NCBI RefSeq assembly: GCF_001412615.1
Contig: NZ_CP013011.1
Coordinates: 1,890,001 to 1,922,000 of the forward strand
Reading direction: 5' to 3'
Length of the DNA: 32,000 bases
From: Pyrodictium delaneyi
GTDB lineage: Archaea > Thermoproteota > Thermoprotei_A > Sulfolobales > Pyrodictiaceae
The notes beneath the pieces were generated by a model. The model ran no database searches and was not told where the DNA came from. It was given only the letters and a program-made list of their open reading frames with translations. This document shows positions 1 through 13,593 of this stretch, piece by piece. A program made the translations under genes and the position numbers. Positions within the stretch are counted from its first letter, which is position 1. Each line of letters starts with the position of its first letter.

Positions 1-2
1 AG

Positions 3-188: not shown

Positions 189-204
189 GCGTGGGGGTGA
201 GGGT

Positions 205-783
205 GTGGTGGCTGTGCTTAGGAAGTTTGTTGATGGCCTAGGTAAGGACAGGAATGTCTACTACGAGGTTGGTGATGGTGTGCTACTATCAGATGAAGAG
301 TTAGTGATAGTCAAAGGGAATAATAGGGCTCTAGAGGGAAGTATTGACTTTACGAAGCTGGTCTACACAATCGCATCAGATATTAAGCCAAGCCTCTACA
401 TGGTGCACATGATTGACAAAGGAAGAAACATCTACGTGTACATGCCACAAATACTGCTACTGAACGCAGTATTTCAATGGATAGATGAAATGCTAAGAGA
501 GATTGACGAGAGTAACAAACGTCTACATGAGATATACATGGCTGACCTCGACTCGGGCAAGTACACGTCAGTGGAGAGGGAGCTCCGCGAAGCACTAGAC
601 CTCATCAACGCGGTAAAGGAGTGGCTAAAGACTGCAAGGGTTCTGCTTGGGTGGCTGCAGGTCATAACAATGAATCCTGACCTTGTGAGGGGGAAGAAGA
701 TCACGGTAGGACTAGAGAAGCGCGAGGCAGACGGCCTAGACAAGTACATGAAGAAGGAAGCCAAGGCAGAGGCCGAGGGGTGA
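205..783 (+). CDS. Hypothetical protein with a coiled-coil-rich C-terminal half (ORF track 160..783)
   Basis: 207-aa ORF. The likely start is GTG 205/208, preceded by GGGGGTGAGG (SD-like) and lying after the upstream stop at 188. Confidence 0.6.
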   Translation: MVAVLRKFVDGLGKDRNVYYEVGDGVLLSDEELVIVKGNNRALEGSIDFTKLVYTIASDIKPSLYMVHMIDKGRNIYVYMPQILLLNAVFQWIDEMLREIDESNKRLHEIYMADLDSGKYTSVERELREALDLINAVKEWLKTARVLLGWLQVITMNPDLVRGKKITVGLEKREADGLDKYMKKEAKAEAEG

Positions 784-790
784 CCAGAGG

Positions 791-1027
791 GTGGATTGTC
801 TGCCGCGGCTGGTGCATGTGCATGGATGCTGGCTTGCCATCAAGGCGTCTAGCTGCGAGGAGCTGGAGAGGGCTGAGCGCATCCTAGAGGCCCTCGACGC
901 GGAGAAGCTGCTCTACGAGGGTGCTCCCGTGGCGCCCGACTGCGCCAGGGTCTACGAAGAAGCCAGGGCAGCCCTGCAGGAGACCCAAGGAGTTGCAGTA
1001 GAAGCGGCATGGCCGAACCCGAGGTGA
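791..1027 (+). CDS. Hypothetical small protein (78 aa)
   Basis: GTG-start ORF packed between neighbours. The start is uncertain. Confidence 0.45.
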   Translation: MDCLPRLVHVHGCWLAIKASSCEELERAERILEALDAEKLLYEGAPVAPDCARVYEEARAALQETQGVAVEAAWPNPR

Positions 1028-1034
1028 CCGCGCG

Positions 1035-1208
1035 ATGAGGGTCATAACATTCAAAGCAGACGAAGAGCTCTTGGAGAGGCTAGACATGTTTGCACGCCTC
1101 AAGGGCGTGACACGGAGTGAGGTCATACGACGCGCCATCGAGCTCTACCTCAAACTAGAGGACTACAAGGTGCAGCCAGAACCAAAGATTGTGAGGCTGA
1201 CAAGCTGA
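1035..1208 (+). CDS. Ribbon-helix-helix (CopG/Arc/MetJ-type) DNA-binding protein, 57 aa. Not in the ORF track (<60 aa)
   Basis: ATG 1035 lies 8 nt after GAGGTGA. The translation is MRVITFKADEELLERLDMFARLKGVTRSEVIRRAIELYLKLEDYKVQPEPKIVRLTS. This is the canonical RHH pattern: N-terminal beta-strand, helix A, G-x-T-R-S-E turn, helix B. Confidence 0.8.
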   Translation: MRVITFKADEELLERLDMFARLKGVTRSEVIRRAIELYLKLEDYKVQPEPKIVRLTS

Positions 1209-1219
1209 GGTGACGGGCC

Positions 1220-1402
1220 GTGGCTGACGAGGAGTGCCAAGTTATTGATGGTGCTATAGTTGAACTGTGCAAAGAGGCTAGGCGCAGATGCATTGAAGAG
1301 GACGATGACGATGCATGTGCATTCTGGCGCTTCGACTGCCACATCGTAAGAGAGTGCCTAAAACTGCGAGAAAGAGGAGTGACGTGCCGTGCTGGACGCT
1401 AG
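1220..1402 (+). CDS. Small acidic Cys-rich protein (60 aa, 6 Cys)
   Basis: GTG 1220 is preceded by GAGGTGA (1207-1213). It overlaps the next ORF by 14 nt. Confidence 0.5.
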   Translation: MADEECQVIDGAIVELCKEARRRCIEEDDDDACAFWRFDCHIVRECLKLRERGVTCRAGR

Positions 1403-1961
1403 GGCGTTGAAGGCCAGGTATTCCTCGAAGTGGCGGCTGGCAGCTAGGCGGGAGCTGCTTTCATATAATATACTGAATATACTGCTGGCCCGGTATGGCT
1501 GCTATGTGTTGTTCACGGGTGTCGGGAGCGGCTACACCGGCTACGTACCAGACAACTATGATAGCCCATTGAACGCCTTCGACTTCGCGGTTTTCTGCAG
1601 CAAGGGTAAGGGCGACGAGCTGGTAGCCTTTGTCGACGTTACCGGCTACCGGGACTACAGCGACGGCAGGGGCGACACTAAGCCCTGCATACTCTACAGG
1701 AAGGTGGAGAAGGCGAAGAGGCTTGGCATACCCCTGGAGCGGGTGTGGTTCCTACACTTCGTAGACACCAGGGTCTCAATGAGGCTGATCAACGCCCACC
1801 TGGTAGAGGAGATGCTGGCGCAGGGTCTGGCAGAGAAGCGGAAACTATACCGCGACGAGAACTGGTACATATGCATAGAGCAGCGCCGCTGGCTAGAACC
1901 ACGCAACTTCATGAAGTGGCTGGCAATGATGAAAGAGGTGAACAACAGTGGCCAGCTATGA
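1389..1961 (+). CDS. Hypothetical protein, 190 aa, with weak PD-(D/E)XK-nuclease-like motifs (FDFAVF ... AFVDVTGY ... YRKVEKAK)
   Basis: The ORF has coding-like composition. The nuclease-like assignment rests only on a loose motif reading. Confidence 0.55.
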   Translation: MLDARALKARYSSKWRLAARRELLSYNILNILLARYGCYVLFTGVGSGYTGYVPDNYDSPLNAFDFAVFCSKGKGDELVAFVDVTGYRDYSDGRGDTKPCILYRKVEKAKRLGIPLERVWFLHFVDTRVSMRLINAHLVEEMLAQGLAEKRKLYRDENWYICIEQRRWLEPRNFMKWLAMMKEVNNSGQL

Positions 1962-2099
1962 GCCGTACAGCTGGAGCGGCTCCTCGAGGAGCTGGCTGAT
2001 GAACTGCGGGAGCTGGATGGGCTGCAGTCCAGGGTTGCCATGACGCTTGCCCGGATCAAGCTCCTACTAGAGCTAGAGAGTCGCTCGTAGGACTGGGGG

Positions 2100-2144
2100 C
2101 TATACTTTGACCTCTAGGCTGGCTATACCCTCGGCGGGCTATAC
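2100..2144 (+). repeat. CTATAC triplet array 1 (hexamers at 2100, 2123, 2139; spacing 23 and 16 bp)
   Basis: GGCTATAC occurs three times, in or adjacent to the 2091..2163 gap. Confidence 0.6.
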
Positions 2145-2820
2145 TCGGCAGCGCCTAGTCGTCATGCTGAGGGACTCTATGGGGCTGAGCTGGGGCGCGA
2201 TAGCAGAGATAGTATATGGGAGCAGGAATGAACGAGCGAAACTGAAGGCCTACGCACTCTACGCAACTGCAAAGAAGAAGGAGCACTATACTCCCGGCAA
2301 CACCAGTGCTATACCGGGCGGGAGCTATACCGAGCTGCGCCCAGAGCGCGGTTGGCAGCAGCGGGCTAGCCCCGTTCTCACGGGGTCTACGATAGGCACT
2401 CTACCAGGGAAATGGGGTAAGAAGGGGGAAGAAAGATACATCGAGGAAGCCGCGGGGATACTACGATACTTCTACGACCTTGTCTTTACACGCTATGATT
2501 TCGATAAGAGCATCCTGGCCTACGCCGAGGAAGTGCTCCGCAGGAGCCGCGGGCTGCTGGAAGGCGAAAAAGTGCATATCAAGCGCGGCTACGTCAAACT
2601 CACGCCGCGCGTCGCCGCAGTGGTTTACGCAAGCTTCTTTGTGAGCGTCTACAACCTCGCCCGCGGCCACCAGGTGCTGGGCGAGCTCTTCTACCACCTA
2701 GTTCAATACCTGAGCCAGACGAAAGAGCTCCGAGGGAATGCGAAGAAGGCGAGGGAGAAGCTGCAGGAAGAACTGAAGCAGATTATGCCGCACTTCGTCA
2801 AGTACATGATTCCGCCCTAA
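2107..2820 (+). CDS. Putative HTH DNA-binding protein (MGLSWGAIAEIVYG helix-turn-helix-like N-terminus). The start is either TTG 2107 or ATG 2164
   Basis: 237-aa ORF. With ATG 2164, the third GGCTATAC box sits about -25. With TTG 2107, the protein contains AIPSAGYT/AIPGGSYT repeats. Confidence 0.6.
   Translation: MTSRLAIPSAGYTRQRLVVMLRDSMGLSWGAIAEIVYGSRNERAKLKAYALYATAKKKEHYTPGNTSAIPGGSYTELRPERGWQQRASPVLTGSTIGTLPGKWGKKGEERYIEEAAGILRYFYDLVFTRYDFDKSILAYAEEVLRRSRGLLEGEKVHIKRGYVKLTPRVAAVVYASFFVSVYNLARGHQVLGELFYHLVQYLSQTKELRGNAKKAREKLQEELKQIMPHFVKYMIPP
2286..2330 (+). repeat. CTATAC triplet array 2 (hexamers at 2286, 2309, 2325; spacing 23 and 16 bp)
   Basis: The phasing is the same as array 1 but the spacers have diverged. 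It lies inside the 2107..2820 ORF. Confidence 0.55.
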
Positions 2821-2835
2821 GGCTGTGGGGCTCCG
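2811..2835 (+). promoter_or_regulatory. Intercistronic element copy A (variant TCCGCCC..GGGGC), 25 nt before GTG 2836
   Basis: The sequence is TCCGCCCTAAGGCTGTGGGGCTCCG. Confidence 0.4.
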
Positions 2836-3144
2836 GTGAAGCGGTTAGCGGCTATTCTGGCGCTCCTCGTATTCCTGGACGCGGCCACAACCTGGTATGC
2901 ACTCTCTACCGGCCATTTCGTTGAGGCGGCTCCTCTCACCTCTAGGCTCCTACCCATCATGGGTCCACTATACTGGGTGCTCGTGGAGTATCCCATACTG
3001 CTTTTCATGACCCAGTTTGCTAGGCTAGCCCCCCTGGGGCGCCGGGTTCTCGTGTATGTTCCTCTCGCCGTGGTCTCTGCTGCTGTCGTGAATAATGTGG
3101 CGTGGTTGCTGAGAGGGGGGTACCTGTTCTCCGGGACGCCGTAA
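2836..3144 (+). CDS. Small integral membrane protein (about 3 TM). The LDAATTWYAL..G..E..P motif is reminiscent of DUF5658-type proteins (from memory)
   Basis: GTG start with hydrophobic segments throughout. Confidence 0.6.
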   Translation: MKRLAAILALLVFLDAATTWYALSTGHFVEAAPLTSRLLPIMGPLYWVLVEYPILLFMTQFARLAPLGRRVLVYVPLAVVSAAVVNNVAWLLRGGYLFSGTP

Positions 3145-3159
3145 ACCCGGGTTTATTGT

Positions 3160-3185
3160 TCGCCCTGGCTGGGCGGAGAAGAGGT
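3160..3185 (+). promoter_or_regulatory. Intercistronic element copy B, 26 nt before ATG 3186
   Basis: The sequence is TCGCCC-TGGCT-GGGCGGAGAAGAGGT. CGCCC and GGGCG are complementary. Confidence 0.6.
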
Positions 3186-3674
3186 ATGCAGCGCCAAGCC
3201 TTGCTGGCCCTGGCTCTGCTCCTGGTAGCAGCAGTAGCGGTTCCCGCTGCCGCGGCCTCTCTAACCGTCAGCGCCGACAAGGACACGTACAGCCCCGGCG
3301 AAACCGTGGTAATCACGGTAGTCGTGGAAGACAACGCTACCAGTGCAACAGTGGCGGTGACGGTCCACGATCCCGAGGGTACGCTGGTCTACAGCGACCA
3401 GCTAACTGTGCAGCTTGTGAACGGCACAGGGAGCACCAGCACAAGCTTCGTTCTCCCCGGCGATGCCAAGGAAGGGAACTGGGTGGTCAAAGCACAGTAC
3501 GGCAGTGTCAGCGCCGAGGATGTGTTCCTCGTAGGCGGGTCTGGAAATGGGGGCTCCGGCGGGTTTGGGGGCGGCAACGTTGTTGTTGGTGCTGCTTTTA
3601 TTGCTATGGCTTTCATTGCTCTAGCCATCTCGCTGAACAAGAGCAAATCGCCCCAGACTGGGCGGAAGAGGTGA
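3186..3674 (+). CDS. Secreted, C-terminally anchored glycoprotein candidate. Layout is signal peptide, Ig-like beta-sandwich (DKDTYSPGETVVITV), Gly-rich linker, TM and basic tail
   Basis: ATG 3186 follows GAGGT. MQRQALLALALLLVAAVAVPAAAAS looks like a signal peptide. There are NAT and NGT sequons. GGSGNGGSGGFGGG is followed by a TM and KSKSPQTGRKR. The ORF-track N-terminal extension (3102) overlaps the previous gene. Confidence 0.7.
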   Translation: MQRQALLALALLLVAAVAVPAAAASLTVSADKDTYSPGETVVITVVVEDNATSATVAVTVHDPEGTLVYSDQLTVQLVNGTGSTSTSFVLPGDAKEGNWVVKAQYGSVSAEDVFLVGGSGNGGSGGFGGGNVVVGAAFIAMAFIALAISLNKSKSPQTGRKR

Positions 3675-3680
3675 GAACCG
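3648..3680 (+). promoter_or_regulatory. Intercistronic element copy C, 33 nt before GTG 3681
   Basis: The sequence is TCGCCCC-AGACT-GGGCGGAAGAGGTGAGAACCG. It is nearly identical in plan to copy B. Confidence 0.55.
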
Positions 3681-4463
3681 GTGCCAAGGAAGAGCCGCGA
3701 GCGTAAGATGCTCGAGCTGCTAAGCGACTTCGGCATAATACTAGCAATACTGGCGCTGATAGCGTCCCTTGGCATGGCTATCAGCGTCACGGTGAGGACC
3801 CCGATACTCACCCTGGCCGACGTCTGGGATCATAGGGACTATGCTAAGGTGCACGTATACCATTTGGTGAACGGGAGCGAGGTAGAGGATGTTTACAGGC
3901 TAGAGGACATCGCGAGCTATGCCAACGGCACGCTAAGCATAGCCTCTCCCGCGGAGAACACCACGAAGATAGTGCTCGAGCTGCAGTGGCTCTCATGGTC
4001 AGCTCTGGCCGACCGCGGCATAAACAGTGTGAACATAACCGTGGAGCCTGCAGCGGAGATAGAGTTCGGGCCGTTCACCGGAAACGGAACGATAAGCAAG
4101 ACCACTAATCCAGTTGAGTTCAGCGTCTGGGCGAACACGCATCCGGGCACGGTTAAGCTTGAAGTACACAATGCTAGCGCAGTGGACATAGCAAGGCTAG
4201 AGGTCATGGGCGTAGGCAAGCAGCCCTTGCTGGCCGTGCTGACACAGCCGTTTTGGGCCGTCGGTGGCATGATAATGGGCTACATCACAGCGATAGCGGC
4301 TGGCATAAGGAGACAGCTAGGATACGTGATGGGTGCAATGAGCGGTGCCATAGGCGCTTTCGTGGGAGCCATTGCAGAGAACCCGATAGCCGCGATAATG
4401 GGCATGGCTGTGGTACTCTTCGTGTTCTACATGATAGCGAAGGAGCAGCCACGCCGACGCTAG
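3681..4463 (+). CDS. Membrane glycoprotein candidate: N-terminal TM, ectodomain with six N-x-S/T sequons, C-terminal Gly/Ala-rich TM pair
   Basis: 260-aa ORF. The sequons are NGS, NGT, NTT, NIT, NGT and NAS. Confidence 0.65.
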   Translation: MPRKSRERKMLELLSDFGIILAILALIASLGMAISVTVRTPILTLADVWDHRDYAKVHVYHLVNGSEVEDVYRLEDIASYANGTLSIASPAENTTKIVLELQWLSWSALADRGINSVNITVEPAAEIEFGPFTGNGTISKTTNPVEFSVWANTHPGTVKLEVHNASAVDIARLEVMGVGKQPLLAVLTQPFWAVGGMIMGYITAIAAGIRRQLGYVMGAMSGAIGAFVGAIAENPIAAIMGMAVVLFVFYMIAKEQPRRR

Positions 4464-4477
4464 GAGCGTTGAAGGGG

Positions 4478-5071
4478 GTGAGGCCGGTGAGGCTGAGAGG
4501 TGCAATAAGCTTCGGCGGAGTACTACTGCTCTTCGTAGCGATAGTCATTATACTGCTAGCGTTCAGCTTCATAGGCGGTGCAAGCTGGTTCTCTCAAACG
4601 GTTAACGCGATAAACAGTCTCTTCGGCGGGATGGGGGAGTTCCTGCCGATCCTTGCTCTCTTCGGCGCAGCCGGCCTAACGGTGTGGCTCGGCGCAGAAC
4701 GTGAATCTCCTCTGCTCCTGACAGCCGGCGGCATAATGTTCGCCGCAGCGATGGGGTGGCTCGCCAACATACAGACATTCCTAACAACGGTGCTGTCGAG
4801 CGTCGGCACGCTAGCGTTCAGCTTCGCAATGCTGTACCTAGCGTATAGGACAAGCGGCTTCCAACGAGTCATCTTCGCAATGGCCGGCGCGATAGGAGCG
4901 ATAGGCGGCACCGTGCTAAGCCTAGGCGACTGGTTCAAGGGCTTTATGGAAGCATTAGTAGTACCCTTTGAAAGGATTGCAGGGCTAAACTACGTAGGCG
5001 TGATAGTGGCCGTGGTGGCACTCCTAGCAGTAGGCGGCCTAATCTTGCGCATCCTCAGGAAGGGCGTCTAG
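4478..5071 (+). CDS. Polytopic membrane protein (about 6 TM)
   Basis: The hydrophobic ORF most likely starts at GTG 4478 or 4487, after GGGGGTGAGG. The ORF-track portion 4253..4477 overlaps the previous gene and is Arg/His-rich junk. Confidence 0.6.
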   Translation: MRPVRLRGAISFGGVLLLFVAIVIILLAFSFIGGASWFSQTVNAINSLFGGMGEFLPILALFGAAGLTVWLGAERESPLLLTAGGIMFAAAMGWLANIQTFLTTVLSSVGTLAFSFAMLYLAYRTSGFQRVIFAMAGAIGAIGGTVLSLGDWFKGFMEALVVPFERIAGLNYVGVIVAVVALLAVGGLILRILRKGV

Positions 5072-5081
5072 CCCACTTTTT

Positions 5082-5106
5082 TCGCCCCCACGCTGCGGGG
5101 GCAACG
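5082..5106 (+). promoter_or_regulatory. Intercistronic element copy D, 25 nt before GTG 5107
   Basis: A T6 tract is followed by TCGCCCCC-ACGCTGC-GGGGGCAACG. The stem is 6 bp. Confidence 0.6.
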
Positions 5107-6126
5107 GTGGCTCGCCAGCTTATACTGCTGGCACTTCTCATCCCACTACTCGCGGCTGCAGCCGCGGCTGCAGACATCAACATCTGGTACAGCTGTGACA
5201 GTAGCGGCTTGTACATAAGCATAAGCAGTGATGTACCGTTTACGTACACTGTGATGCACGATGGTAATGTCATTGACTCGGGGCAATCCAGTAGCACATA
5301 CGCAATAACGGTGACTATGCCTGGTACATACGAGGTCGAGGCATATCCAACGGGTAGCAATACGGGGAAATGGGCTGCAATAAGCTATGACGGCGCAACA
5401 TGCTCGTGTAGTGGTGCGTGCAGCGGAAGCGGGGGCGGTGGTGGAAGCGGCGGGGGCGGTTGGGGCGGAAGCATAGGCATCGACTGCAGCGGCTGGTGCA
5501 ACAACTGCCAGCTACCCCCAGGACTCACATGGATATGCGATCTAGTCTGCAGCCTATGCAGGATAATCAACGGCATGAAAGCAGCAATAGAAGCAATCGC
5601 GAACTTCTTCGATGGGCTCCTCGGAGCGATCCACAGCGTCGGACAGAGGATAATAGATGGTATAAGCGCTGTCGGAAGCTTCTTTGCCGGCATCGGGGAC
5701 GCTGTGATAGGCTTCTTCTCGAGCGTGGCGAGCAGGGTAACAGGCTTTGTCGATGCTTTGAGCAGCTTCTTTGGCAGCTTGGCAGACGCTGTATACAGTT
5801 TCTTCAAGGGATGGTTCGACTTGATAACCGCGCCGTTCCGCGCTATAATGGACAGGTTGGGCGGGGGCAGCGGCGGGGCAGGGGTGAAAAGTGCCGGGGG
5901 GATGACGTGGAGACAATACTTGTTCATGCTCGGCGTCGCATTGATTGTGGGTGGCGCTTTCGCGGGTGGGAGAGCGAAGATAATCTCTCTGGCAGGCGCG
6001 CTAATAGTCGCATACATAATGTTCACGGACCGCCAGTTCATAGAGGGGATAGTGAAGTCGCCGTACCTGGTCATAGCTGCTGGTGCATTCCTGCTAGTCT
6101 ACGCGGCGCTGAGGATGAGAGAATGA
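5107..6126 (+). CDS. Secreted Cys-rich protein with a Gly linker, 11-residue-periodic FF amphipathic repeat region and C-terminal TM segments. Candidate virion or envelope protein
   Basis: MARQLILLALLIPLLAAAAAAA looks like a signal peptide. There are 9 Cys between residues 99 and 151. GSGGGGGSGGGGWGG is a Gly linker. FF occurs at residues 192, 203, (214), 221 and 232. Two or three TM segments lie at the C-terminus. Confidence 0.7.
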   Translation: MARQLILLALLIPLLAAAAAAADINIWYSCDSSGLYISISSDVPFTYTVMHDGNVIDSGQSSSTYAITVTMPGTYEVEAYPTGSNTGKWAAISYDGATCSCSGACSGSGGGGGSGGGGWGGSIGIDCSGWCNNCQLPPGLTWICDLVCSLCRIINGMKAAIEAIANFFDGLLGAIHSVGQRIIDGISAVGSFFAGIGDAVIGFFSSVASRVTGFVDALSSFFGSLADAVYSFFKGWFDLITAPFRAIMDRLGGGSGGAGVKSAGGMTWRQYLFMLGVALIVGGAFAGGRAKIISLAGALIVAYIMFTDRQFIEGIVKSPYLVIAAGAFLLVYAALRMRE

Positions 6127-6425
6127 GCTGGGAAGCATGGATAGAAGAGCTGAAACAATGGACAACTATGCAGTGGGCGCTGTTCTGGCTAGGAGCAGCA
6201 ATGATAGCCTATGGCCTGAAGAGCCACCCGAGGATATCGCAGTGGGGCGCGGCGCTCTTCTTGGCCGCGTTTTTCTGGCCCCTACTCCGCCAGGTGCACG
6301 CCTACACGTTGCGGCTCAGCGGCGACCCGGTGACAGCGGCTATAGCGACTGTCGCCGCGATCTTTGTCGGCCCTAGGATACTGTTGGAGCTGGTGAAGGC
6401 TGCGCTACGGAGCAGGTCGCCCTAG
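6123..6425 (+). CDS. Small membrane protein (about 100 aa, 3 TM)
   Basis: ATG 6123 overlaps the upstream stop (ATGA). It is the only sensible part of the 335-aa alternate-frame ORF 5418..6425. Confidence 0.55.
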   Translation: MSWEAWIEELKQWTTMQWALFWLGAAMIAYGLKSHPRISQWGAALFLAAFFWPLLRQVHAYTLRLSGDPVTAAIATVAAIFVGPRILLELVKAALRSRSP

Positions 6426-6441
6426 GGGGCGGAGAGTAGGG
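6417..6441 (+). promoter_or_regulatory. Intercistronic element copy E, 25 nt before ATG 6442
   Basis: The sequence is TCGCCC-TAGG-GGGCGGAGAGTAGGG. Confidence 0.6.
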
Positions 6442-6693
6442 ATGGTTCTCAGGCTGAAGCAAAGCGGGGTTGTGGACGGGTTTGATCTGGAAGAGCTAGA
6501 GGAGATAGTGGCTAGCGCGGCGGAGAAGGCTGTCGAGAAAGCTATCCGCAGAAGGGGGGACACGCTGGCATACGCGCAGAGAGTCCTGCAGGTCTACCAG
6601 TTCTTCGAGTCGAATGTGGGGGATAAGCAGGTCGCGCTTGAGCTCACCCGTATAGTCTTCGTCTCCGAGAAGATGGGTGAGGGAGATGAGTAG
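6442..6693 (+). CDS. Hypothetical acidic protein (83 aa)
   Basis: ATG-start ORF, with intercistronic motif copy E 25 nt upstream. Confidence 0.55.
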   Translation: MVLRLKQSGVVDGFDLEELEEIVASAAEKAVEKAIRRRGDTLAYAQRVLQVYQFFESNVGDKQVALELTRIVFVSEKMGEGDE

Positions 6694-7216
6694 CCTGCCC
6701 GATGAGCTCGAGAAGCTGAGCAACTCTATGATGCGGCTCTTCCAGCGGCCCTTCCGCCGCATAGACCGGGCCACGGAGACCCTGCTCCGCAGGGACATAG
6801 GGAGAAGCATAGCGAGGAGAATAGAAGGGCTCGGGGCCAGAGGAGTCCGCGCTCTAAGACTCGCGATAGAGAGGTTCGAGAAGGCGAGGAGCGAGAGGGC
6901 GCGCAGGAAGGCCTACGAGGACGTATTAAGAGCTCTCTATGGCAGGAAGGGCTCCAGGGTTCTCCGAAAAGCCATAGAGGCTGGCATATTGAGCGAGGAA
7001 GAGGTCGTGGAGCTGGCGAAGAGGCGGCTCCGCCGGAAGGCTGCTAGGATTCGCCCAGCAAGGCGGGAGAGACGCCGTGGCCGGGAGAGGAAGAACACTA
7101 GGCCCAAGATAGTAGCGGCATACGAGTTCCGGGAATGCTGGCGGGAATGTGGGCACCCCCGGCGGAACCGGCAGTGCTGGAGCCGCTGCATGAAGAGGGC
7201 GTGGAGCGACGTCTAG
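6677..7216 (+). CDS. Highly basic Arg-rich protein with a C-terminal CxxxC..H..CxxxC motif. Nucleic-acid-binding candidate
   Basis: 179-aa ORF with runs such as RRLRRKAARIRPARRERRRGRERK. The C-terminus is ECWRECGHPRRNRQCWSRC. Confidence 0.6.
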   Translation: MREMSSLPDELEKLSNSMMRLFQRPFRRIDRATETLLRRDIGRSIARRIEGLGARGVRALRLAIERFEKARSERARRKAYEDVLRALYGRKGSRVLRKAIEAGILSEEEVVELAKRRLRRKAARIRPARRERRRGRERKNTRPKIVAAYEFRECWRECGHPRRNRQCWSRCMKRAWSDV

Positions 7217-7218
7217 GC

Positions 7219-7244
7219 TCGCCCTCTCCGGCGGAGAGCCCGGG
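7219..7244 (+). promoter_or_regulatory. Intercistronic element copy F, 26 nt before ATG 7245
   Basis: The sequence is TCGCCCTCTCC-GGCGGAGAGCCCGGG. A CTCTCC/GGAGAG hairpin is also possible. Confidence 0.55.
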
Positions 7245-7547
7245 ATGCCGCGGAAGCGGGGGAAGAGGCGTAATAGGAACAAGTACCTAGGCAAGGGCTG
7301 CCAGAGCCCGCCATGCGTTCCCGACACCGGCAGACCCGGCCTCGATAATTTACACGAGGTAGAGAAGATAGCGAAGAGGATACTGCAGGACGCACGGCGG
7401 GGCAGGATAAGCAAGAAGACGGCGCATGGCCGGTTCCTGCTGCTCTATCGCCTAGTCTCCGGCAAGGATAGGGATTTCCGCGGCGCGAAGGCCCGGAGAG
7501 CCATAGCGATAGTGAAGAAGTACTGGGGGAAGCTCCGCAGGCTCTAG
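7245..7547 (+). CDS. Highly basic small protein (100 aa)
   Basis: MPRKRGKRRNRNK N-terminus. Motif copy F lies 26 nt upstream. Confidence 0.6.
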   Translation: MPRKRGKRRNRNKYLGKGCQSPPCVPDTGRPGLDNLHEVEKIAKRILQDARRGRISKKTAHGRFLLLYRLVSGKDRDFRGAKARRAIAIVKKYWGKLRRL

Positions 7548-7557
7548 CCCCTCTTTT

Positions 7558-7584
7558 TCGCCCCTCATACCCTCGGGGCGGGAC
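7558..7584 (+). promoter_or_regulatory. Intercistronic element copy G, 27 nt before TTG 7585
   Basis: A T5 tract is followed by TCGCCCC-TCATACCCTC-GGGGCGGGAC. The stem is 6 bp. Confidence 0.6.
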
Positions 7585-8559
7585 TTGACAGGGAAGCCTC
7601 TAACTCTAGCCCTCGCTATTCTCACACTACATTTTATACTATATACTGTGCCCGCGTACGCAGCCTCGAGTGGCCCCTACCTCTACCATGACCAGGAGTA
7701 CCTTGTAGTGGCTTACTACCGGTTCGGTAACCGTATCGCAATGGCGCAGAACAACAGCAAGGTCTTCAGCCCGGTCACTATAGAGGTGTTCAGCAAGACT
7801 GGTAGGCCTGTTAGCTTCGTAGTGGGAGAGCGGAAGTTCTCGCTCCTGGCGGGGTTCGGAGAGCCGGCCCGTCACGTGCTCGAGGTGCCGCCCAACCAGC
7901 ATGTGTGCATACAAGTGGTCCTGGAAGGCTCTGCGAAGAGGTTCTGCTTCTACGGCCTCGCCAGGGAGCGGGCGGTAGAGGAGTACGTGCAGATGACGGT
8001 GAAGGAGCTCGCAGCTCTGGTAACACGTGTACGGGCCGAGACGCTCGCGGCGGCGCTCGCCGGGATACTGGCTGGTGCCGGTTTGGCTTGGCTAGTCAAG
8101 ACGAGGCTGGTGCTTCTTGACGCTCTGAACCCTGTTAGCCTCGCGGCTGGGCTCATAGCCTTGGCCGCTATGCCGAGGTACTGGTGGCTCAGCATCCCAA
8201 TGCTCCTAGGCCTCTTTGCCGGCTACTGGTTGGCCCCCAGCCCGCCCACGGTAGCGCTGGTGAAACCCGACTTCAGCAATAGGCGTCTCAAGGTGTTGCT
8301 GCTCCCGGTTTACTACACGAGCGATGGAAGGCTCGCGGCGGCGCTGCAGGACTTCAAAGCGACTCTCGGGAGACTCCGGGGCAGCCACGTCTATGTGGAG
8401 AATACTGTGACGGGAGAAGGACTGCCCCTCTCAGGGTGGAGCCTAGATATCATAGACGAGAAGGGCAGGAGCAGCAGCTACGAGATGCTCCTTGTCCGCA
8501 GGATACGCTTGAAGCGTAGAAGGGTGAGAGGAGATGCTCTGGGGGAGAAGGAAGAGTAG
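7585..8559 (+). CDS. Secreted/membrane protein: signal peptide, beta-rich ectodomain, central TM cluster, basic C-terminus
   Basis: TTG start. MTGKPLTLALAILTLHFILYTVPAYA looks like a signal peptide. Motif copy G lies 27 nt upstream. Confidence 0.6.
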   Translation: MTGKPLTLALAILTLHFILYTVPAYAASSGPYLYHDQEYLVVAYYRFGNRIAMAQNNSKVFSPVTIEVFSKTGRPVSFVVGERKFSLLAGFGEPARHVLEVPPNQHVCIQVVLEGSAKRFCFYGLARERAVEEYVQMTVKELAALVTRVRAETLAAALAGILAGAGLAWLVKTRLVLLDALNPVSLAAGLIALAAMPRYWWLSIPMLLGLFAGYWLAPSPPTVALVKPDFSNRRLKVLLLPVYYTSDGRLAAALQDFKATLGRLRGSHVYVENTVTGEGLPLSGWSLDIIDEKGRSSSYEMLLVRRIRLKRRRVRGDALGEKEE

Positions 8560-8863
8560 ACCTCGAGTAGAGTACGAGTACGTGCTAGAGGTAGAGCCGT
8601 TGGTTAGCGCTGAAGAGAATGTCTTCGAATATCTGGCAGCTCCCTACGAGAAGTTTGCCGAGGTTCTCGCGGAGAATATACGGTTGAAGTGGGCCCTGAC
8701 GGCGGGGAAGCTACTAGCCTACAAGAGGGCTCATGAGATTGCACGTAGACGCATAACGTGGCTGGCCCGGAACATTCTCGCCCCACCCCGGCAGCCGCCG
8801 GGATCGCCCCTACGGCCCGGGGCGAGGGATGGCGAAGCGGAGAGGAAGGAAGAGGAAGCGTAG
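8534..8863 (+). CDS. Hypothetical protein (109 aa)
   Basis: ATG start after GAGAGGAG. It overlaps both neighbours. Confidence 0.5.
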   Translation: MLWGRRKSRPRVEYEYVLEVEPLVSAEENVFEYLAAPYEKFAEVLAENIRLKWALTAGKLLAYKRAHEIARRRITWLARNILAPPRQPPGSPLRPGARDGEAERKEEEA

Positions 8864-9344
8864 CAACCCACGGCTCCGGTACAAGAAGAGGTACGTGAAG
8901 CACAGGCGGCTCGAAGAAGAGGCGGAGCAAGTCTCGAGGGCTAGTGCTGAGCTGGGAGAGTACGTGGTCAAGTGGCTTGACGAGGCGCTGGATGCTCTGA
9001 GGCGGGGAGCCAGGAAGAAAGCGCAGAAGCTTATACGCCGCATCCTTAGGCGCGGCCAGGCCTCGATGCTCGGCAAGAGAAGGGGCCGGAGAGGCCGAAC
9101 AGTGTTTACAGACCACCTAGTGGTGAACAGCAGGGGCCGGGTCAAGCATTACGGCATACACGGGGTAAAGGGCTGGAACCCGGAGAGCCCCGAGGAAGTC
9201 CAGTTCAAGAACAAGCGCGGCGAAGACCTAGAATACGAGGAGATAGGCGAAGTAGCAGTAAAGCCCGCTAGGCGCAAAATCAAGCGTACCCAGCGCTGGA
9301 AAAGAGCCGGCGGAAAGGACAAGTCTAATAAAGGACGCAAATAG
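8829..9344 (+). CDS. Highly basic protein (171 aa, Lys/Arg-rich)
   Basis: MAKRRGRKRKRSNPRLRYKKRYVKHRR N-terminus and a basic C-terminus. Confidence 0.6.
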   Translation: MAKRRGRKRKRSNPRLRYKKRYVKHRRLEEEAEQVSRASAELGEYVVKWLDEALDALRRGARKKAQKLIRRILRRGQASMLGKRRGRRGRTVFTDHLVVNSRGRVKHYGIHGVKGWNPESPEEVQFKNKRGEDLEYEEIGEVAVKPARRKIKRTQRWKRAGGKDKSNKGRK

Positions 9345-9362
9345 TTTCCAATAAGCTGGAGA

Positions 9363-9430
9363 GCCCCCGCGTGCGATGTACGCGGGAGCCGCGGTAAGCC
9401 GCGGGGGCGGATGATTCCACCCCCTTTATA
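9363..9430 (+). promoter_or_regulatory. GC-rich nested palindromes followed by a TTTATA box, in the largest non-coding gap of the element
   Basis: GCCCCCGCG (9363-71) pairs with CGCGGGGGC (9400-08). An alternative fold is CCCGCG-N9-CGCGGG plus CCGCGG-TAAG-CCGCGG. GGGGG (9403-07) can pair with CCCCC (9420-24). TTTATA is at 9425-30. Confidence 0.5.
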
Positions 9431-9493
9431 GGACGCTTGGCCGAAACTAACCTGTGTAGAATCCTACTCCGCCCCTACTGTTGGGGGCTATGT

Positions 9494-9898
9494 GTGAGCC
9501 TCACGTCTAGGGAGCTACTGCACGAGATCGAGAAGCTGCTTGTCTCCCGGCTCCGCAGGCTGGATCCGCAGCTAGGCTCATTGGCCCTTAATGCCTATGC
9601 CCGGGAGATCGTGTGGTGGTATAAGCAGTACCAGCTTATGGGCTTCCAGCTGGAGTGGAATGCTAAGAGGCAGCGCTTCAAATGCCTAGAAAACGATGAG
9701 GGCTGCCGCCTGGCCGAGGAGCATCTCAACTACCTTCTCCTCATGGGCCGCGCCGAGACCGTGCCTCGGCTGTCGACACTGGATCAGCTCTTGCTGAGCG
9801 TGCCTGTGGGCGAAGAGAGCGAGAAGAGGAAGACATTGAGGATAGGGCCTAGGAGAAGACATGAGGACAAAGAGGAAGAAGTGATCGAGGAGTTCTAG
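9494..9898 (+). CDS. Hypothetical protein (ORF track 9437..9898; likely start GTG 9494)
   Basis: TTTATA at 9425-9430 would place a TSS near 9452. GGGGG lies 7 nt before GTG 9494. Confidence 0.5.
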   Translation: MSLTSRELLHEIEKLLVSRLRRLDPQLGSLALNAYAREIVWWYKQYQLMGFQLEWNAKRQRFKCLENDEGCRLAEEHLNYLLLMGRAETVPRLSTLDQLLLSVPVGEESEKRKTLRIGPRRRHEDKEEEVIEEF

Positions 9899-9901
9899 AG
9901 T

Positions 9902-9925
9902 TCGCCCCCTGACGTAGGGGTGGCT
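9902..9925 (+). promoter_or_regulatory. Intercistronic element copy H, 24 nt before ATG 9926
   Basis: The sequence is TCGCCCCCT-GACGT-AGGGGTGGCT. Confidence 0.55.
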
Positions 9926-10921
9926 ATGCCTAGGCTACCGATAAAGTTCATGCCCGAGGCTTTCAGCGACTATGTCTACAAGCTCCTCATCGAGGGGCCG
10001 CTGCGCGAGGTTGAGAAGGGCTCTCGGGCTATGAGGAAGCTATACTTTGTTGCGAGCCAGGGCGGCGGAAAAAGTTGGTCCATGGCTTCTACCGCAGAGT
10101 GGCTCTGGGACGAACTGGAAGCGAGGGGGCTGAGCGTTGACGTGAAAATGCTGGACGTGGATAGGCACCTGAGGCCCAAATACAGGGTTTCATGTATAGA
10201 GGAGCTCGTTGAGGCTATGAAAAACACTGCCGCGGATGTCTTCATAGGGATTGTCGGAGAGGCAGCAGCAGATCTATCCAACATGGTCATATCGGGTGAG
10301 GAGTACAAGGCGAACGTGCTCTTCGCCAGGCACTTCTTCAGGGCAAGACACTTCTCCAACGCCCGGATAGTATACCTAATGTTCGCTTCACAGAAGACAA
10401 AGCGTCTCATGGGAGATATAAGGGATCTTGCCGACCTAGTAGTAGTCAAAGCATTGCCTCGCTGGGAAGCGAACCTGATAATCGAGGCGTTGAACATAAC
10501 CGATAGGGCTGTTATAGAGGAGCTCATGAAGCTGTACGATTTGGCGTTCATATACGGAGATAAGAGCCGGGGCATAGGAGTTGCAAACGATAAGGCCGGG
10601 CTGATCCGGTTCGATCCACCCAGCCGCATCATAGACCCAAGCTACGAGGCACCGCCAGAGGAGAGAGAAGAGAAGGCCAAGCAGAGCATGAAGCGCTTAG
10701 GAAAGAGAAAGATTCTCGACTCTGTAGAGCGTAGGTGCGTGACGCGGAACTGCAGGGTGACTATCCCGGCTGAATGGCTCGAGGAGCTGCCCCGGGAGAA
10801 TGGGGCCTGGCAGTTCACGCTTGAGCGTGTCGTTCTTGAGGACGGCTCGGCGGGGTTTCTACTCCGGCCCCGGGTTCAGCAGAAGAGGCGGGGGCTGCTG
10901 GGCGGGCTGCTCCCCTTCTAG
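9926..10921 (+). CDS. P-loop NTPase with a C-terminal AbrB/SpoVT-like domain
   Basis: Walker A is ASQGGGKS (about nt 10061-10075). A Walker-B-like VFIGIVGE follows. The C-terminus CRVTIPAEWLEELPRENGAWQFTLERVVLEDGSAGFLLRP matches the AbrB swapped-hairpin pattern. ATG 9926 follows AGGGGTGG; GTG 9920 is an alternative start. Confidence 0.65.
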   Translation: MPRLPIKFMPEAFSDYVYKLLIEGPLREVEKGSRAMRKLYFVASQGGGKSWSMASTAEWLWDELEARGLSVDVKMLDVDRHLRPKYRVSCIEELVEAMKNTAADVFIGIVGEAAADLSNMVISGEEYKANVLFARHFFRARHFSNARIVYLMFASQKTKRLMGDIRDLADLVVVKALPRWEANLIIEALNITDRAVIEELMKLYDLAFIYGDKSRGIGVANDKAGLIRFDPPSRIIDPSYEAPPEEREEKAKQSMKRLGKRKILDSVERRCVTRNCRVTIPAEWLEELPRENGAWQFTLERVVLEDGSAGFLLRPRVQQKRRGLLGGLLPF

Positions 10922-10923
10922 AT

Positions 10924-10949
10924 TCGCCCAGTAGTAGCGGAGAGGCGGG
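10924..10949 (+). promoter_or_regulatory. Intercistronic element copy I, 26 nt before TTG 10950
   Basis: The sequence is TCGCCC-AGTAGTA-GCGGAGAGGCGGG. Confidence 0.55.
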
Positions 10950-11612
10950 TTGCAGAGGAGAACCCTACTACTAGGCCTGGGCGGGGCCGGAGCAGGCGCT
11001 GCTGCCGCCGTGCTAGTAGCACTACTACTATTCCAGCCTGCCGCTGAAACAGCCATGGCCGCGCTGGAGATACTGCCGGTGCTCAAGGTATACAAGAACG
11101 GCGAGCTGGTCTACATGAAGGTTGGTGACCCGCCGCTCGAGAACTGGGCGAAGGTGCTCGCCGCAATACTGACGAATCAGGGGCAGACGCTGATAACGAG
11201 CGACGGCGGTGGCGTTACACTAAACCACGGGGATGGCCTAGACGCGCTCGTTGGTAGATCCGATAACGGCGCCCTAACGGCGCCGCCGGTGGTTGTCGCG
11301 GGCCAGCTTAGTAGTGAACTGACATACAATACTTACTGGTTCGACGAGGCCTACACAGCGCCGATAACAACACTAGGCACCGGCTGGCAAGAGAACATGG
11401 GAGAGTACGTGATAAAGATCAAGGGCACAGTGACATTTGACTCCAACACTACCATAAACGTTGTGGGTCTTGCGATAAGGCCTGTGGTAGACACCTACCA
11501 GAGAACCGTACTTGTGTTTGCGGACAAGTTGCCAGAGCCTATAGATGTTAGCAGCACAGATAGCTTGACCATAGTCTATGAGATCCACATTAAGTGGCCT
11601 AGCACGGGCTAA
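10950..11612 (+). CDS. Secreted beta-rich protein with a Tat-like signal (MQRRTLLLGLGGAGAGAAAA)
   Basis: TTG start with motif copy I 26 nt upstream. A twin-Arg is followed by an h-region and an A-x-A-like site. Confidence 0.55.
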   Translation: MQRRTLLLGLGGAGAGAAAAVLVALLLFQPAAETAMAALEILPVLKVYKNGELVYMKVGDPPLENWAKVLAAILTNQGQTLITSDGGGVTLNHGDGLDALVGRSDNGALTAPPVVVAGQLSSELTYNTYWFDEAYTAPITTLGTGWQENMGEYVIKIKGTVTFDSNTTINVVGLAIRPVVDTYQRTVLVFADKLPEPIDVSSTDSLTIVYEIHIKWPSTG

Positions 11613-11621
11613 GGGTGAGAA

Positions 11622-12422
11622 GTGTTGAGGCGGGTGGCCCTACTCAGTTTTTCCCTGGCATTCCTCTCGACACTCGCAGTTCTAGCTGCTGCCGCAGAGC
11701 TGGGGCTGAGCGTGTCCAGCGTGTTTGACTGGTTCTACAACGTGACTGTCAGGCTGGGATTCAAAGCCCAGCCTGCGCCAATTGTGGCCTGGGACTACGC
11801 TCTAATGGGAAGCAGCGGGGGCAAGGCAGTAGCTGCGGACGGCTTCAGCTTGGCCTATAATCTGAGTGTTGACGTGAACACGACTGCTGCCAGCCCGGAC
11901 ACAGTGGTTGAAGTCGCCGCGTCCACTCCAACCGTCTCCGTCTACGGGGCGGAGCCCCGGCAGCTCTTCGTCGTCTACGCTAACGGGACTATGAGCGCTC
12001 TAGGCGGCGGTGGCGGGCAGCAGGTATGTGCATCTCCCAGGGAGTGCGGCCTCGAGCTTGGCTGGGGCCGGGTCTACTACACCGACGCGATGGGCAACCC
12101 GGCTAGCCCCGCCGCGGGGAAGCAGGTGCTGATCCACTTCCCGATACACGCCAGCCCCCAGGGCAGGTATGGTAAGGCGCTGGTGCTGGTAGAGGTTCAC
12201 AGGTATGATCCCAGCTACGGCACGGTGATAATCGATGAGAACATGGCGATAGGCGTGAGCTGGGCCCTCGTAGGCGACGGAATAGAGGTGACACTACTCT
12301 GGTGGCCCAAGGATCCCGGCACATATCTCATAAGGGCCTACGTCTGGAACGGGTTCCCGGGCCAGGTAGAGGAGTGGGAGAGCTACATCGAACCCCTAGA
12401 GCTGGTAGTGAATATCCCCTAG
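11622..12422 (+). CDS. Secreted protein (266 aa) with a Sec-type signal peptide
   Basis: GTG start after GGGTGAG. MLRRVALLSFSLAFLSTLAVLAAAAE looks like a signal peptide. A T5 tract follows the stop. Confidence 0.6.
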   Translation: MLRRVALLSFSLAFLSTLAVLAAAAELGLSVSSVFDWFYNVTVRLGFKAQPAPIVAWDYALMGSSGGKAVAADGFSLAYNLSVDVNTTAASPDTVVEVAASTPTVSVYGAEPRQLFVVYANGTMSALGGGGGQQVCASPRECGLELGWGRVYYTDAMGNPASPAAGKQVLIHFPIHASPQGRYGKALVLVEVHRYDPSYGTVIIDENMAIGVSWALVGDGIEVTLLWWPKDPGTYLIRAYVWNGFPGQVEEWESYIEPLELVVNIP

Positions 12423-12434
12423 TTTTTGCCCTGG

Positions 12435-13520
12435 TCAAAACCTAGGCGACGAGCTATCTCTCCCATTATCCTCAGCGAGATAGACCTGGAGCCGCCGCCT
12501 TAGCTCGGGGAGTATCTTCTCGACGTAGGCCTGGTCTGCGCGTAGGACTATCTTGCTGTAGTTGGTGAGGCCGACCACGTTCTCTATCTTGGCGTAGCGG
12601 TTCTGTATTAGCTCGCGGAGCTCCAGGTCTATCTCCAGGTCTTCCATGAGCTGGTAGTGGTGTTTGCGGAGCATCTTGGGCGGTGCCAGGTCTAGGCCAC
12701 TGCGCCTGCGTATATTCCTGACGTAGTAAGATAGGCGGCGCGCCGAGGGCGGCTCGCCATGCCACGCCCTGGCCTCTTCGAAGACCTCGCGGGGGAGCCA
12801 GAGGAACTCGCAGCGCTTCTTGCCGCGGTTGAAGTGCAGCGCCACTCTCACGGCGTCTCCCAGCTCCACGTATCCTGTTTGCTCTAGGCTCCGCTGGTGG
12901 CTTACGGGCTTCAGGCTGGCCGCCGCTCTCACAAGATATTCTGCCTCTTCCGCCCTGGCGCCAGAATAGTACATTATCTTGTAGAGTAGCGCGTAGCCGT
13001 GCTGGCCTGCGGCCTCGAGGTAGTCTATGGTGAACCGTATCTTTTCGGCCTCTACCGCGGGGGCCTTGGCCTTGCGCAGGCTCCTCTGGCCCCGCACTAG
13101 GGCGTAGATGCGCTCGCGCTCCTCTAGCGTTATGCTGCCGGTCTCCCAGAGGAAGCTGGCTATCTTGCGTATGAGGTTGGCGTACCACTTGCTCCTCTTA
13201 GCCAGCTCGGTTATAGAGTCGGGGGTTAAGACCTGGGGGAGCTTCGAGTAATAGCGCATATAGTCCTCGAGGGTTCTAGCCTCGACTTTACCGCTGAGCC
13301 AGTCCCTAAACCTGTTAGCATCCGGTAGAAGGATTTTCCAGGCCTGGGCTGAAGGCTCCGAGCCTTCCCTGGAGAAAATCTCGTTTCGATTCCTGTCTTG
13401 GCTCGGGACTCCTAAGCCGGTGGTCGGGGGTTCAAATCCCCCCGGGCCCGCCACTCTATCACCACCATTCTTCACGTACGCTATGAAGCCACTGGCACAG
13501 TCTAACCTAGAATTATACAC
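12435..13520 (-). CDS. int: SSV-type tyrosine integrase, Int(C) portion fused across attR. The drawn 361-aa ORF is probably chimeric: the N-terminal ~23 codons come from host flank and ~15 codons from antisense tRNA
   Basis: Recombinase motifs are YYSGARAEEA (Arg), LRKHHYQLM (H/R box) and GLTNYSK (Tyr). The frame reads antisense through 13409..13453. There is no Met between the tRNA segment and the catalytic domain. Confidence 0.8.
   Translation of the reverse strand: MYNSRLDCASGFIAYVKNGGDRVAGPGGFEPPTTGLGVPSQDRNRNEIFSREGSEPSAQAWKILLPDANRFRDWLSGKVEARTLEDYMRYYSKLPQVLTPDSITELAKRSKWYANLIRKIASFLWETGSITLEERERIYALVRGQRSLRKAKAPAVEAEKIRFTIDYLEAAGQHGYALLYKIMYYSGARAEEAEYLVRAAASLKPVSHQRSLEQTGYVELGDAVRVALHFNRGKKRCEFLWLPREVFEEARAWHGEPPSARRLSYYVRNIRRRSGLDLAPPKMLRKHHYQLMEDLEIDLELRELIQNRYAKIENVVGLTNYSKIVLRADQAYVEKILPELRRRLQVYLAEDNGRDSSSPRF
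13409..13453 (+). tRNA. 3' half of tRNA-Arg (anticodon CCT), positions 32-76 including encoded CCA. Attachment site copy (attR), not a complete gene
   Basis: The segments are: loop CTCCTAA (U33, A37), stem GCCGG, variable TGGTC, T-arm GGGGG-TTCAAAT-CCCCC, acceptor CGGGCCC, discriminator G, CCA. No complementary GGGCCCG acceptor strand, D-arm or CCGGC anticodon-stem strand lies upstream. Confidence 0.8.
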
Positions 13521-13593
13521 GAGTATCTCGCCGAGGACAGCAGCATATATCTGGACACCATACCCTTATAGGTTACTACGGTGGCCTCTAGCC

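Follow-up and report, generated by a model that had tools for sequence, protein, structure and literature searches.

The genome of the archaeon Pyrodictium delaneyi harbours an integrated virus-like element in the 32,000-nucleotide stretch analysed here (contig NZ_CP013011.1, positions 1,890,001 to 1,922,000 of the forward strand; hereafter the window), where it extends from position 1 to ~13450 and carries nearly all of its genes on the plus strand. In this element and in four relatives, we found a bipartite sequence motif, (T/C)CGC(C/T)C-N8-9-GGRG-N6-7-start, that is locked to the start codons of a large set of genes. We interpret it, at about even confidence, as a DNA-level, virus-specific promoter-proximal signal (promoter or operator) of leaderless late-gene units, most of which would have no TATA box.

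The first part of the motif, Box1, is (T/C)CGC(C/T)C, and its first base (T0) lies 25±1 nt before the start codon. The second part, Box2 (GGRG), begins 14-15 nt past the start of Box1 (32/39 sites) and was seen by anchoring the sites on the T of Box1, with G at +15 in 36/40 and at +16 in 35/40 sites, followed by G or A. Box2 occurs in two flavours, GGAGA(R) and GGGG(C/T). Among 40 exact TCGCCC sites, the distance from T0 to the start codon is 25 nt at 17 sites, 26 nt at 12 and 24 nt at five, and the standard deviation over the 39 sites with a recognisable Box2 is 1.26 nt. The window contains 12 good copies, and the five elements together contain 55 motif genes; gene starts are predictions throughout. 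When trained on the relatives, a position weight matrix (PWM) picks up the window sites, and it is unspecific if the start codon is left out as a constraint.

A preliminary description of this DNA had reported nine copies of a TCGCCC-loop-GGGCG motif, and all nine are present at the positions and start-codon distances that it listed. Its list was incomplete, as four copies (starting at 2081, 7051, 8804 and 9468) had been missed, and one listed site (3648, 33 nt from the start codon) does contain TCGCCC but is degenerate, led by a Shine-Dalgarno (SD) sequence and not a proper copy. The motif it described is real, but the second constant part is GGRG, and the position of GGGCG varies; similarly, the purine block reported as "GGCGGAGAG" exists but represents just one of the two Box2 flavours. 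A check of operator symmetry gave a constant spacing of Box1 and Box2, yet GGRG complements Box1 in part only, and GGGCG, which is fully complementary, occurs at variable positions.

The word TCGCCC as such is not enriched in the window (40 copies versus 28.5 expected). Its position is what stands out: exact TCGCCC lies 24-27 nt upstream of 8/23 element gene starts (binomial P = 1e-14), which bears out the position lock proposed earlier. Across the five elements, 42/77 TCGCCC copies have the start of an open reading frame (ORF) of at least 50 aa at +23 to +28, compared to 2/31 in the host control, which comprised ~47 kb of flanks (18.5 kb of P. delaneyi DNA and the flanks of the four relatives). 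Neither of these two host copies has a Box2, and one of them (30870, with a TTG start at 30894, +24) falls in a stretch assigned instead to the minus-strand ORF 29433-31211. The pattern TCGCYC-N9-GGRR was observed nine times in the window versus 1.08 expected, with a single match in the host part, which is the chance level, and the full motif was found at no host gene start in the ~47 kb of flanks. The earlier remark that TCGCCC in host DNA keeps no fixed offset from start codons agrees with these counts, and a check on whether the motif is equally common before host genes came out negative within the flanks examined.

Both the motif and its spacing are retained in the homologous elements. It precedes the orthologues of 13 genes in the four relatives, despite the divergence of the sequence between the boxes, and it moves with its gene, as seen in the rearranged element L006, whose gene order differs from that of the window element, and at sites that fall within the coding sequence of an upstream gene. 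The majority of copies are located in non-coding spacers. In Aeropyrum globular virus 1 (AGV1; L009, NC_036595.1), the only isolated virus with a detectable shared gene, no TCGCCC-type signal was found upstream of the genes, nearly all of which have GGTG-type SD sequences. The motif thus represents an innovation of the Pyrodictium element lineage, and its absence from the host flanks and from AGV1 points to an element-specific reader.

Genes with the motif and genes with an SD sequence largely exclude each other. GGTG is found at -17 to -5 in 4/55 motif genes versus 35/56 other element genes (Fisher P = 5e-10). Host genes and early element genes carry GGTG(A) at -13 to -9, often overlapping the TGA with which the upstream gene ends (examples in the element: 791, 1035, 1220, 3681, 4487, 8534 and 11634), while the genes upstream of the motif mostly end in TAG. 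Duplex energies with the 16S tail, taken to be the usual archaeal anti-SD sequence and not read from this genome, were -7.1 kcal/mol for the motif leaders, -11.1 kcal/mol for genes with a GGTG SD and -5.2 kcal/mol for random 22-mers, and the pairing positions of the motif leaders were scattered over 0-9 nt. Based on this weak and scattered pairing with the assumed tail, Box2 was rejected as an SD sequence, and the SD-like appearance formerly attributed to the purine block was not borne out. In Crenarchaeota, first genes of a transcription unit are as a rule leaderless and internal genes SD-led; genes without an SD are typically first in their unit, with the TATA box ~27 bp before the start codon (Sulfolobus, Pyrobaculum). 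Host genes without an SD in the flanks examined have A/T-rich boxes at -42 to -20 more often than SD-led host genes.

The geometry of the sites with an A/T-rich heptamer upstream (12/56) is informative in this respect: in 10 of the 12, the 3' edge of the heptamer is 23-28 nt away from the start codon, which is the canonical distance from TATA to start. In the group of gene 3186 (genes are named here by their start positions), the heptamers are of the type TTTATT, TTTAAC or ATTTAT, and in the groups of 5107 and 7585 they are T5-6 runs ending in the T of Box1. An internal standard for the distance between TATA box and transcription start site (TSS) is provided by a conserved non-coding element (9358-9420, plus strand), before whose first G an A/T-rich heptamer ends at 21-31 nt (best 24-26) in all five elements; because of this placement, the non-coding element probably represents either a small RNA or a long leader belonging to gene 9494. 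As the spacing at the motif sites matches this standard, the groups of 3186, 5107 and 7585 would be transcribed from the start codon or from within a few bases of it, which would place Box1 and Box2 in untranscribed DNA that separates the TATA box from the TSS. The precision of the distance from T0 to the start codon is that expected of TATA-to-TSS geometry in Sulfolobus and Pyrobaculum promoters if the TSS is the start codon. A TSS at Box1 itself was rejected, since no conserved A/T-rich sequence lies 25 nt upstream of T0.

Runs of five to six T on the coding strand are rare in the element: two occur in coding sequence, and the others follow the last gene or precede Box1 of 5107 and 7585. T5-6 tracts had been described before several copies, a claim that shrinks to two in the window, the T6 run at 5077-5082 and the T5 run at 7554-7558 (plus strand). 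The first ends in the first base of the Box1 that it adjoins and might terminate the upstream unit, stand in for a TATA box or do both; the second likewise ends in the first base of Box1, is kept in L001 and L003 and is a T4 run in L004. The T5 run at 12423-12427 (plus strand), directly 3' of the stop codon of the last plus-strand gene, is likely a terminator, showing that such runs are used in this element. If T-runs terminate transcription, genes 5107 and 7585 would therefore need re-initiation within 25 nt of their start codons.

Taken together, the exclusion of SD sequences, the position lock, the heptamer geometry and the weakness of the hairpin signals (see below) favour a role at the DNA level. 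Of the readings first put forward, a promoter core that occupies the interval from TATA to TSS in leaderless mRNAs is the best supported, by the missing SD, the tight spacing and the heptamers; these would not be ordinary promoters, however, given that 44/56 sites are TATA-less. An operator for a DNA-binding protein of the element is compatible with, and here not separable from, the promoter reading. Relative to the start codon, Box1 begins at -25, the place expected for the 3' end of a TATA box, its CGCCC takes the position just downstream of such a box, and Box2 lies at about -10. The motif would mark the start of about twelve short late units, the first gene of each being leaderless or nearly so: 2107; 2836; 3186-5071; 5107-6376; 6442-7216; 7077, which is broken in the window; 7245; 7585-8863; 8829; 9494; 9926; and 10950-12422. 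Within each unit, the genes would rely on ordinary GGTG SD sequences.

Because most sites have no A/T-rich TATA box, the host RNA polymerase, TATA-binding protein (TBP) and transcription factor B (TFB) alone would presumably be inefficient there. We infer that transcription starts at the start codon and that a sequence-specific factor, possibly encoded by the element, reads Box1 and Box2 and switches the late genes together, either by activation after induction or by repression during lysogeny. Candidates for this factor are a 57-aa ribbon-helix-helix (RHH, CopG family) protein (1035..1208, plus strand; PF01402, E=3.7e-10), a conserved 237-aa protein resembling helix-turn-helix (HTH) proteins (2107..2820, plus strand) and a small Cys-rich protein. 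The gene of the 237-aa protein itself carries the first motif copy, and a three-helix segment is predicted at its N-terminus. Its proposed HTH was not confirmed by Pfam; neither Pfam nor a PDB sequence search gave a match, and the AlphaFold model has a predicted local distance difference test (pLDDT) score of 50. On these grounds, the idea of a TFB-like cyclin-fold factor was dropped for this protein. A bolder version of the promoter reading, in which a provirus-encoded specificity factor reads TCGCCC (-25) and GGRG (-10) as a TATA-independent class of archaeal promoter, is unlikely; the factor would bring the host RNA polymerase machinery to G+C-rich DNA or position it there, and the late genes would be expressed as separate leaderless mRNAs at ~90 °C.

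Several observations weigh against a promoter at these positions. No TATA-like A/T-rich heptamer was found at the 44 sites mentioned, a window with at least 7/8 A/T occurs at -42 to -20 in 9% of the sites versus 39% of host genes without an SD, and the region from T0-14 to T0-8 carries less than 0.3 bit and is C/G-rich, with no purine-rich TFB recognition element (BRE) visible. The A/T-rich TATA box of ~8 bp centred ~26-27 bp upstream of the TSS and the adjoining purine-rich BRE of a canonical core promoter are thus not what the motif sites show. A TATA-poor archaeal promoter would be unusual; without TATA and BRE, either a factor makes the sites usable or they are not promoters. The -10 region is G-rich, in contrast to the A/T-rich one in the canonical promoter of the same elements. 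Moreover, 27/40 motif genes start with GTG or TTG, codons that are poor for leaderless initiation in tested systems; host genes with a canonical TATA at -25 likewise use TTG or GTG. Archaeal activators usually bind upstream of BRE and TATA and not between TATA and TSS, and the leaderless status of the motif genes is itself something that we infer. Finally, the sites fold better than shuffles that preserve the boxes (z = -2.9 at 37 °C, -2.2 at 85 °C), as a model of an RNA hairpin predicts.

The last point belongs to an RNA-level explanation in which the late genes form polycistronic mRNAs and a hairpin 6-7 nt before the start codon acts as a translational operator of each cistron, either masking a weak purine-rich ribosome-binding site or binding an element-encoded RNA-binding protein. 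The C-rich Box1 is indeed complementary to the G-rich region of Box2, and at 37 °C a G-C hairpin of 4-7 bp forms at most sites; besides the excess over box-fixed shuffles, the differing loop lengths and helix extensions among sites, the missing TATA box at most of them and a canonical promoter ~100-140 nt upstream of gene 9494, which could put the motif in a 5' leader, speak for this explanation. The host grows at ~82-97 °C, and at 85 °C the free energy is 0 kcal/mol for 15/38 hairpins and within 0.1 of it for two more, the best reaching -3 to -5.4 kcal/mol. Sense and antisense strands do not differ in folding (P = 0.41), and chimeras of the 5' half of one site and the 3' half from the site of another gene fold like native sites (z = -1.0, 57/300), so that there is no site-specific co-evolution of the arms. 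The complementarity of Box1 and Box2 is a property of the consensus and not of co-evolving arms, and in the group of gene 10950 Box1 shows C-to-T variants without a change in Box2. The conserved TCG of Box1 has no regular pairing partner, the pairing of Box2 with the assumed anti-SD is poor and inconsistent in position, no relevant match was found in Rfam 15 for window positions 1-14500 at E<=1, and at the sites where a T-run or TATA-like box stands in canonical geometry the motif would stay outside the transcript. The original suggestion of a hairpin that masks or presents the SD therefore keeps its consensus hairpin potential and is weakened by the poor SD pairing, the energies near 0 at 85 °C and the chimeras; we consider an RNA operator the main rival reading, though a rather unlikely one.

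Cleavage of a polycistronic transcript at or near Box1 by a specific endonuclease, freeing monocistronic mRNAs with short leaders or a protective 5' hairpin, would fit the constant offset from the start codon, the U-runs adjoining Box1 at two junctions and the hairpin potential of the consensus. It is highly improbable, as no nuclease of such specificity was identifiable in the element, the strand symmetry and the chimeras count against it too, and we know of no precedent for RNA processing at such a motif. Even less probable is a generic host signal, that is, an ordinary Pyrodictium promoter or SD context. TCGCCC does occur 21 times in the host part of the window, and an A/T-rich stretch precedes three host copies, but the association of such stretches with TCGCCC in host DNA is not significant (4/31 versus 3.7 expected, P = 0.51), and host promoters built as "TATA + TCGCCC" were rejected on this count. 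Host genes have GGTG SD sequences or A/T-rich TATA boxes, only two of the 31 host copies are followed by a start at the right distance, both without Box2, and the full pattern occurs a single time in 18.5 kb of host DNA, as expected by chance. An origin by chance, or as a by-product of coding sequence or base composition, would agree with the unremarkable overall frequency of TCGCCC and with the unconstrained PWM, which rates some random sequence as high as real sites; given the position lock in the window, its preservation at 13 orthologous starts despite diverged spacers and the location of most copies in non-coding spacers, its probability is negligible. These last two explanations are essentially excluded.

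To our knowledge, archaeal viruses are thought to depend wholly on promoters recognised by host TBP and TFB, few virus-specific cis elements have been described, all of them from Sulfolobales viruses, and a promoter-specificity factor is not known from any archaeal virus. Bacteriophage late promoters, such as those of T4, have a consensus read by a phage-encoded specificity factor; if the TATA-independent version were true, the motif would resemble them in that one short consensus precedes all late genes and stays silent until a virus factor appears, in another domain of life and with another transcription machinery. Hairpins that sequester an SD and translational operators include the coat-protein operator of MS2 and the RegA sites of T4. 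If read as RNA, the motif shares with these a small hairpin potential at a fixed place before the start codons of several genes, and it differs in the missing covariation, the marginal stability at growth temperature and the poor SD quality of Box2.

Among archaeal systems, the closest comparison is with the viruses SIRV1 and SIRV2 (Rudiviridae), in which most promoters are reported to carry a GTC element directly downstream of their TATA box (Kessler et al. 2004, cited after PMC5569661). Both signals are short, virus-specific and recurrent cis elements, and with the start codon as the TSS, CGCCC would directly follow the TATA position on its 3' side. As expected of an element of this type, the motif recurs in the lineage, is absent from the host flanks and lies next to the TATA position, and may act in a promoter; where T-runs or TATA-like boxes are present, T0 coincides with their 3' end. 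Unlike the SIRV promoters, which have canonical BRE and TATA, most sites here have neither, and the motif is longer, G+C-rich, locked to the start codon and equipped with a second box at -10. The host regulator aCcr1 and its viral homologues, which are RHH proteins, bind boxes between TATA and start codon (PMC9976878). The aCcr1-box is similarly short and sits, in many genes, between TATA position and start codon, and the element encodes an RHH protein, the 57-aa candidate; however, the aCcr1-box is A/T-rich and palindromic, has variable offsets and lies in host promoters with a normal TATA, and its binding was demonstrated by electrophoretic mobility shift assay (EMSA) and chromatin immunoprecipitation (ChIP), whereas our motif is a pattern in DNA sequences. 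The operators of the SSV1 protein F55 and the regulatory sequences shared by SIRV2 early genes (PMC5569661, PMC11065993) are also virus-specific sequences, overlapping or flanking core promoters, through which genes of one temporal class are controlled together in a (temperate) archaeal virus. They consist of tandem ATAGATAG repeats, or of long conserved flanks around strong BRE/TATA cores, and serve early genes, whereas the motif described here serves the structural gene block. Overall, the behaviour of the motif is that of the known promoter elements specific to Sulfolobales viruses and not that of a canonical BRE/TATA promoter, an SD sequence or a covarying RNA.

The structural gene block of a Pyrodictium provirus lineage thus shares a G+C-rich, TATA-poor signal placed with nucleotide precision. 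If it does represent a promoter class, it would show viral reprogramming of transcription in an archaeon growing near 90-100 °C, and a 25-bp element with three small candidate proteins would offer a clean in vitro system. Should the class be TATA-independent, it would be an archaeal counterpart of phage late-promoter switching, undescribed for any archaeal virus; an RNA operator, in turn, would make the motif an uncommon example of coordinated translational control in Crenarchaeota. On the practical side, the signature TCGCYC-N9-GGRG-N6-start corrects start codons and exposes small genes in these elements, and suggests, for example, two starts in the window (9494 and 7077) and two in L001 (7040 and 9559).

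The individual copies in the window are all on the plus strand. The first, one of the four missed previously, spans 2081-2106, with Box1 TCGCTC at 2081-2086, Box2 GGGG at 2095-2098 and the TTG start at 2107 (distance 26 nt); this is the start of the first motif-bearing gene, which encodes the 237-aa putative HTH protein, and its orthologues in L001 and L003 have TCGTTC at a distance of 25 nt. Copy A (2811-2835) is the variant T-CCGCCC (2812-2817) with GGGG at 2827-2830 and GTG at 2836, and it overlaps the stop codon of the upstream gene. In copy B (3160-3185), Box1 at 3160-3165 and GGAG at 3175-3178 precede ATG 3186 (26 nt), and the TATA-like TTTATT lies just 5' of it at 3150-3155, where the orthologues have TTTAAC or ATTTAT. 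Copy C (3648-3680) is the degenerate or relic site, whose Box1 lies within the upstream ORF and consists of codons for the conserved C-terminus of the upstream protein; the SD of its gene is GAGGTGA, and a proper copy was found only in the orthologue of L006, the most distant relative. Copy D (5082-5106) comprises Box1 at 5082-5087 and GGGG at 5097-5100 before GTG 5107 (25 nt), and copy E (6417-6441) Box1 at 6417-6422 and GGAG at 6431-6434 before ATG 6442 (25 nt). The next site, at 7051-7076, is also newly recognised, with Box1 at 7051-7056, GGGA at 7065-7068 and GTG at 7077 (26 nt). It is followed by copy F (7219-7244; Box1 7219-7224, GGAG 7233-7236, ATG 7245, 26 nt) and copy G (7558-7584; Box1 7558-7563, GGGG 7575-7578, TTG 7585, 27 nt). 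The remaining two missed copies are found at 8804-8828, inside the 3' end of ORF 8534-8863 (Box1 8804-8809, GGGG 8819-8822, ATG 8829, 25 nt), and at 9468-9493, again as the variant T-CCGCCC (9469-9474; GGGG 9483-9486, GTG 9494). Copies H (9902-9925; Box1 9902-9907, GGGG 9917-9920, ATG 9926, 24 nt) and I (10924-10949; Box1 10924-10929, GGAG 10939-10942, TTG 10950, 26 nt) complete the set.

The small Cys-rich ORF (52-54 aa; ...KPKVVAAYE.CW.ECGHPR.NR.CWSRC.KRAWSDV, then stop) has been missed by gene callers and has its own motif and start in L001 (7040), L003 (6502) and L004 (7201). In the window (7051-7216, plus strand), the motif and GTG 7077 are kept, the frame stops after 11 codons, and a frameshift or a sequencing error has joined the Cys-rich part in frame to ORF 6677-7216.

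Besides the RHH protein, the element encodes a viral/archaeal nuclease (1389-1961; Pfam match PF12187), the only nuclease match in the element and the sole link to AGV1 and the spindle-shaped viruses (SSVs); the AGV1 nuclease is 33% identical. Homologues in Pyrodictium had already been noted in the description of AGV1 (10.1101/2021.04.21.440749). At 9926-10921, the element encodes an ATPase-like protein that shows 100% identity to Pyrde_1908 of P. delaneyi. The AbrB domain once assigned to this protein was not confirmed, with no Pfam match at E<=0.01; its relatives align with P-loop ATPases, distant homologues having GPPESGKT and the Pyrodictium versions an aberrant loop, SQGGGKS. An archaeal-virus-type integrase is encoded on the minus strand (12435-13520), and the 5' part of its ORF contains the 3' half of a tRNA at ~13395-13451 (plus strand; T-arm GGGGGTTCAAATCCCCC, acceptor and CCA). 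Judged by its sequence, this arrangement is an SSV-type attachment site. No complete tRNA was found in the window, and the other junction of the element therefore lies to the left of it; the left end of the element falls outside the window.

The relatives are four independent elements from metagenome-assembled genomes and metagenomes, L001, L003, L004 (identical to L005 and L008) and L006, whose ATPases are 83%, 81%, 69% and 63% identical to that in the window, respectively. Scans of GTDB genomes and IMG/VR yielded no relatives of the element, a metagenome scan yielded a duplicate of L004 and nothing else, and a profile search yielded no further close relatives and two distant ATPase homologues. 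A phage collection searched with the element DNA and the ATPase gave no match, with nothing similar at the DNA level.

The non-coding element mentioned above is structured (GGAGAGCC-(two hairpins)-GGCGGATGAT) and lies in the sole large intergenic gap. Its copies are located at 9418-9481 in L001, 8932-8994 in L003 (with partial copies near 8828 and 8867), 9474-9537 in L004 and 9493-9555 in L006. RNAalifold gave -24 kcal/mol, with four pairs maintained through double changes, and there was no Rfam match; GA and GAUGA strands flanking the outer stem give it a look that might be that of a kink-turn. In L003, a Piwi-domain (prokaryotic Argonaute-like) gene is found on the host side at 15103-16509, ~2 kb from the integrase end. 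Just to the right of the integration site in the window, between divergent host genes, the intergenic stretch 14640-14890 is strongly A/T-rich (G+C down to 0.52) and contains several TATATA-like boxes, resembling ordinary bidirectional promoters, in contrast to the motif sites.

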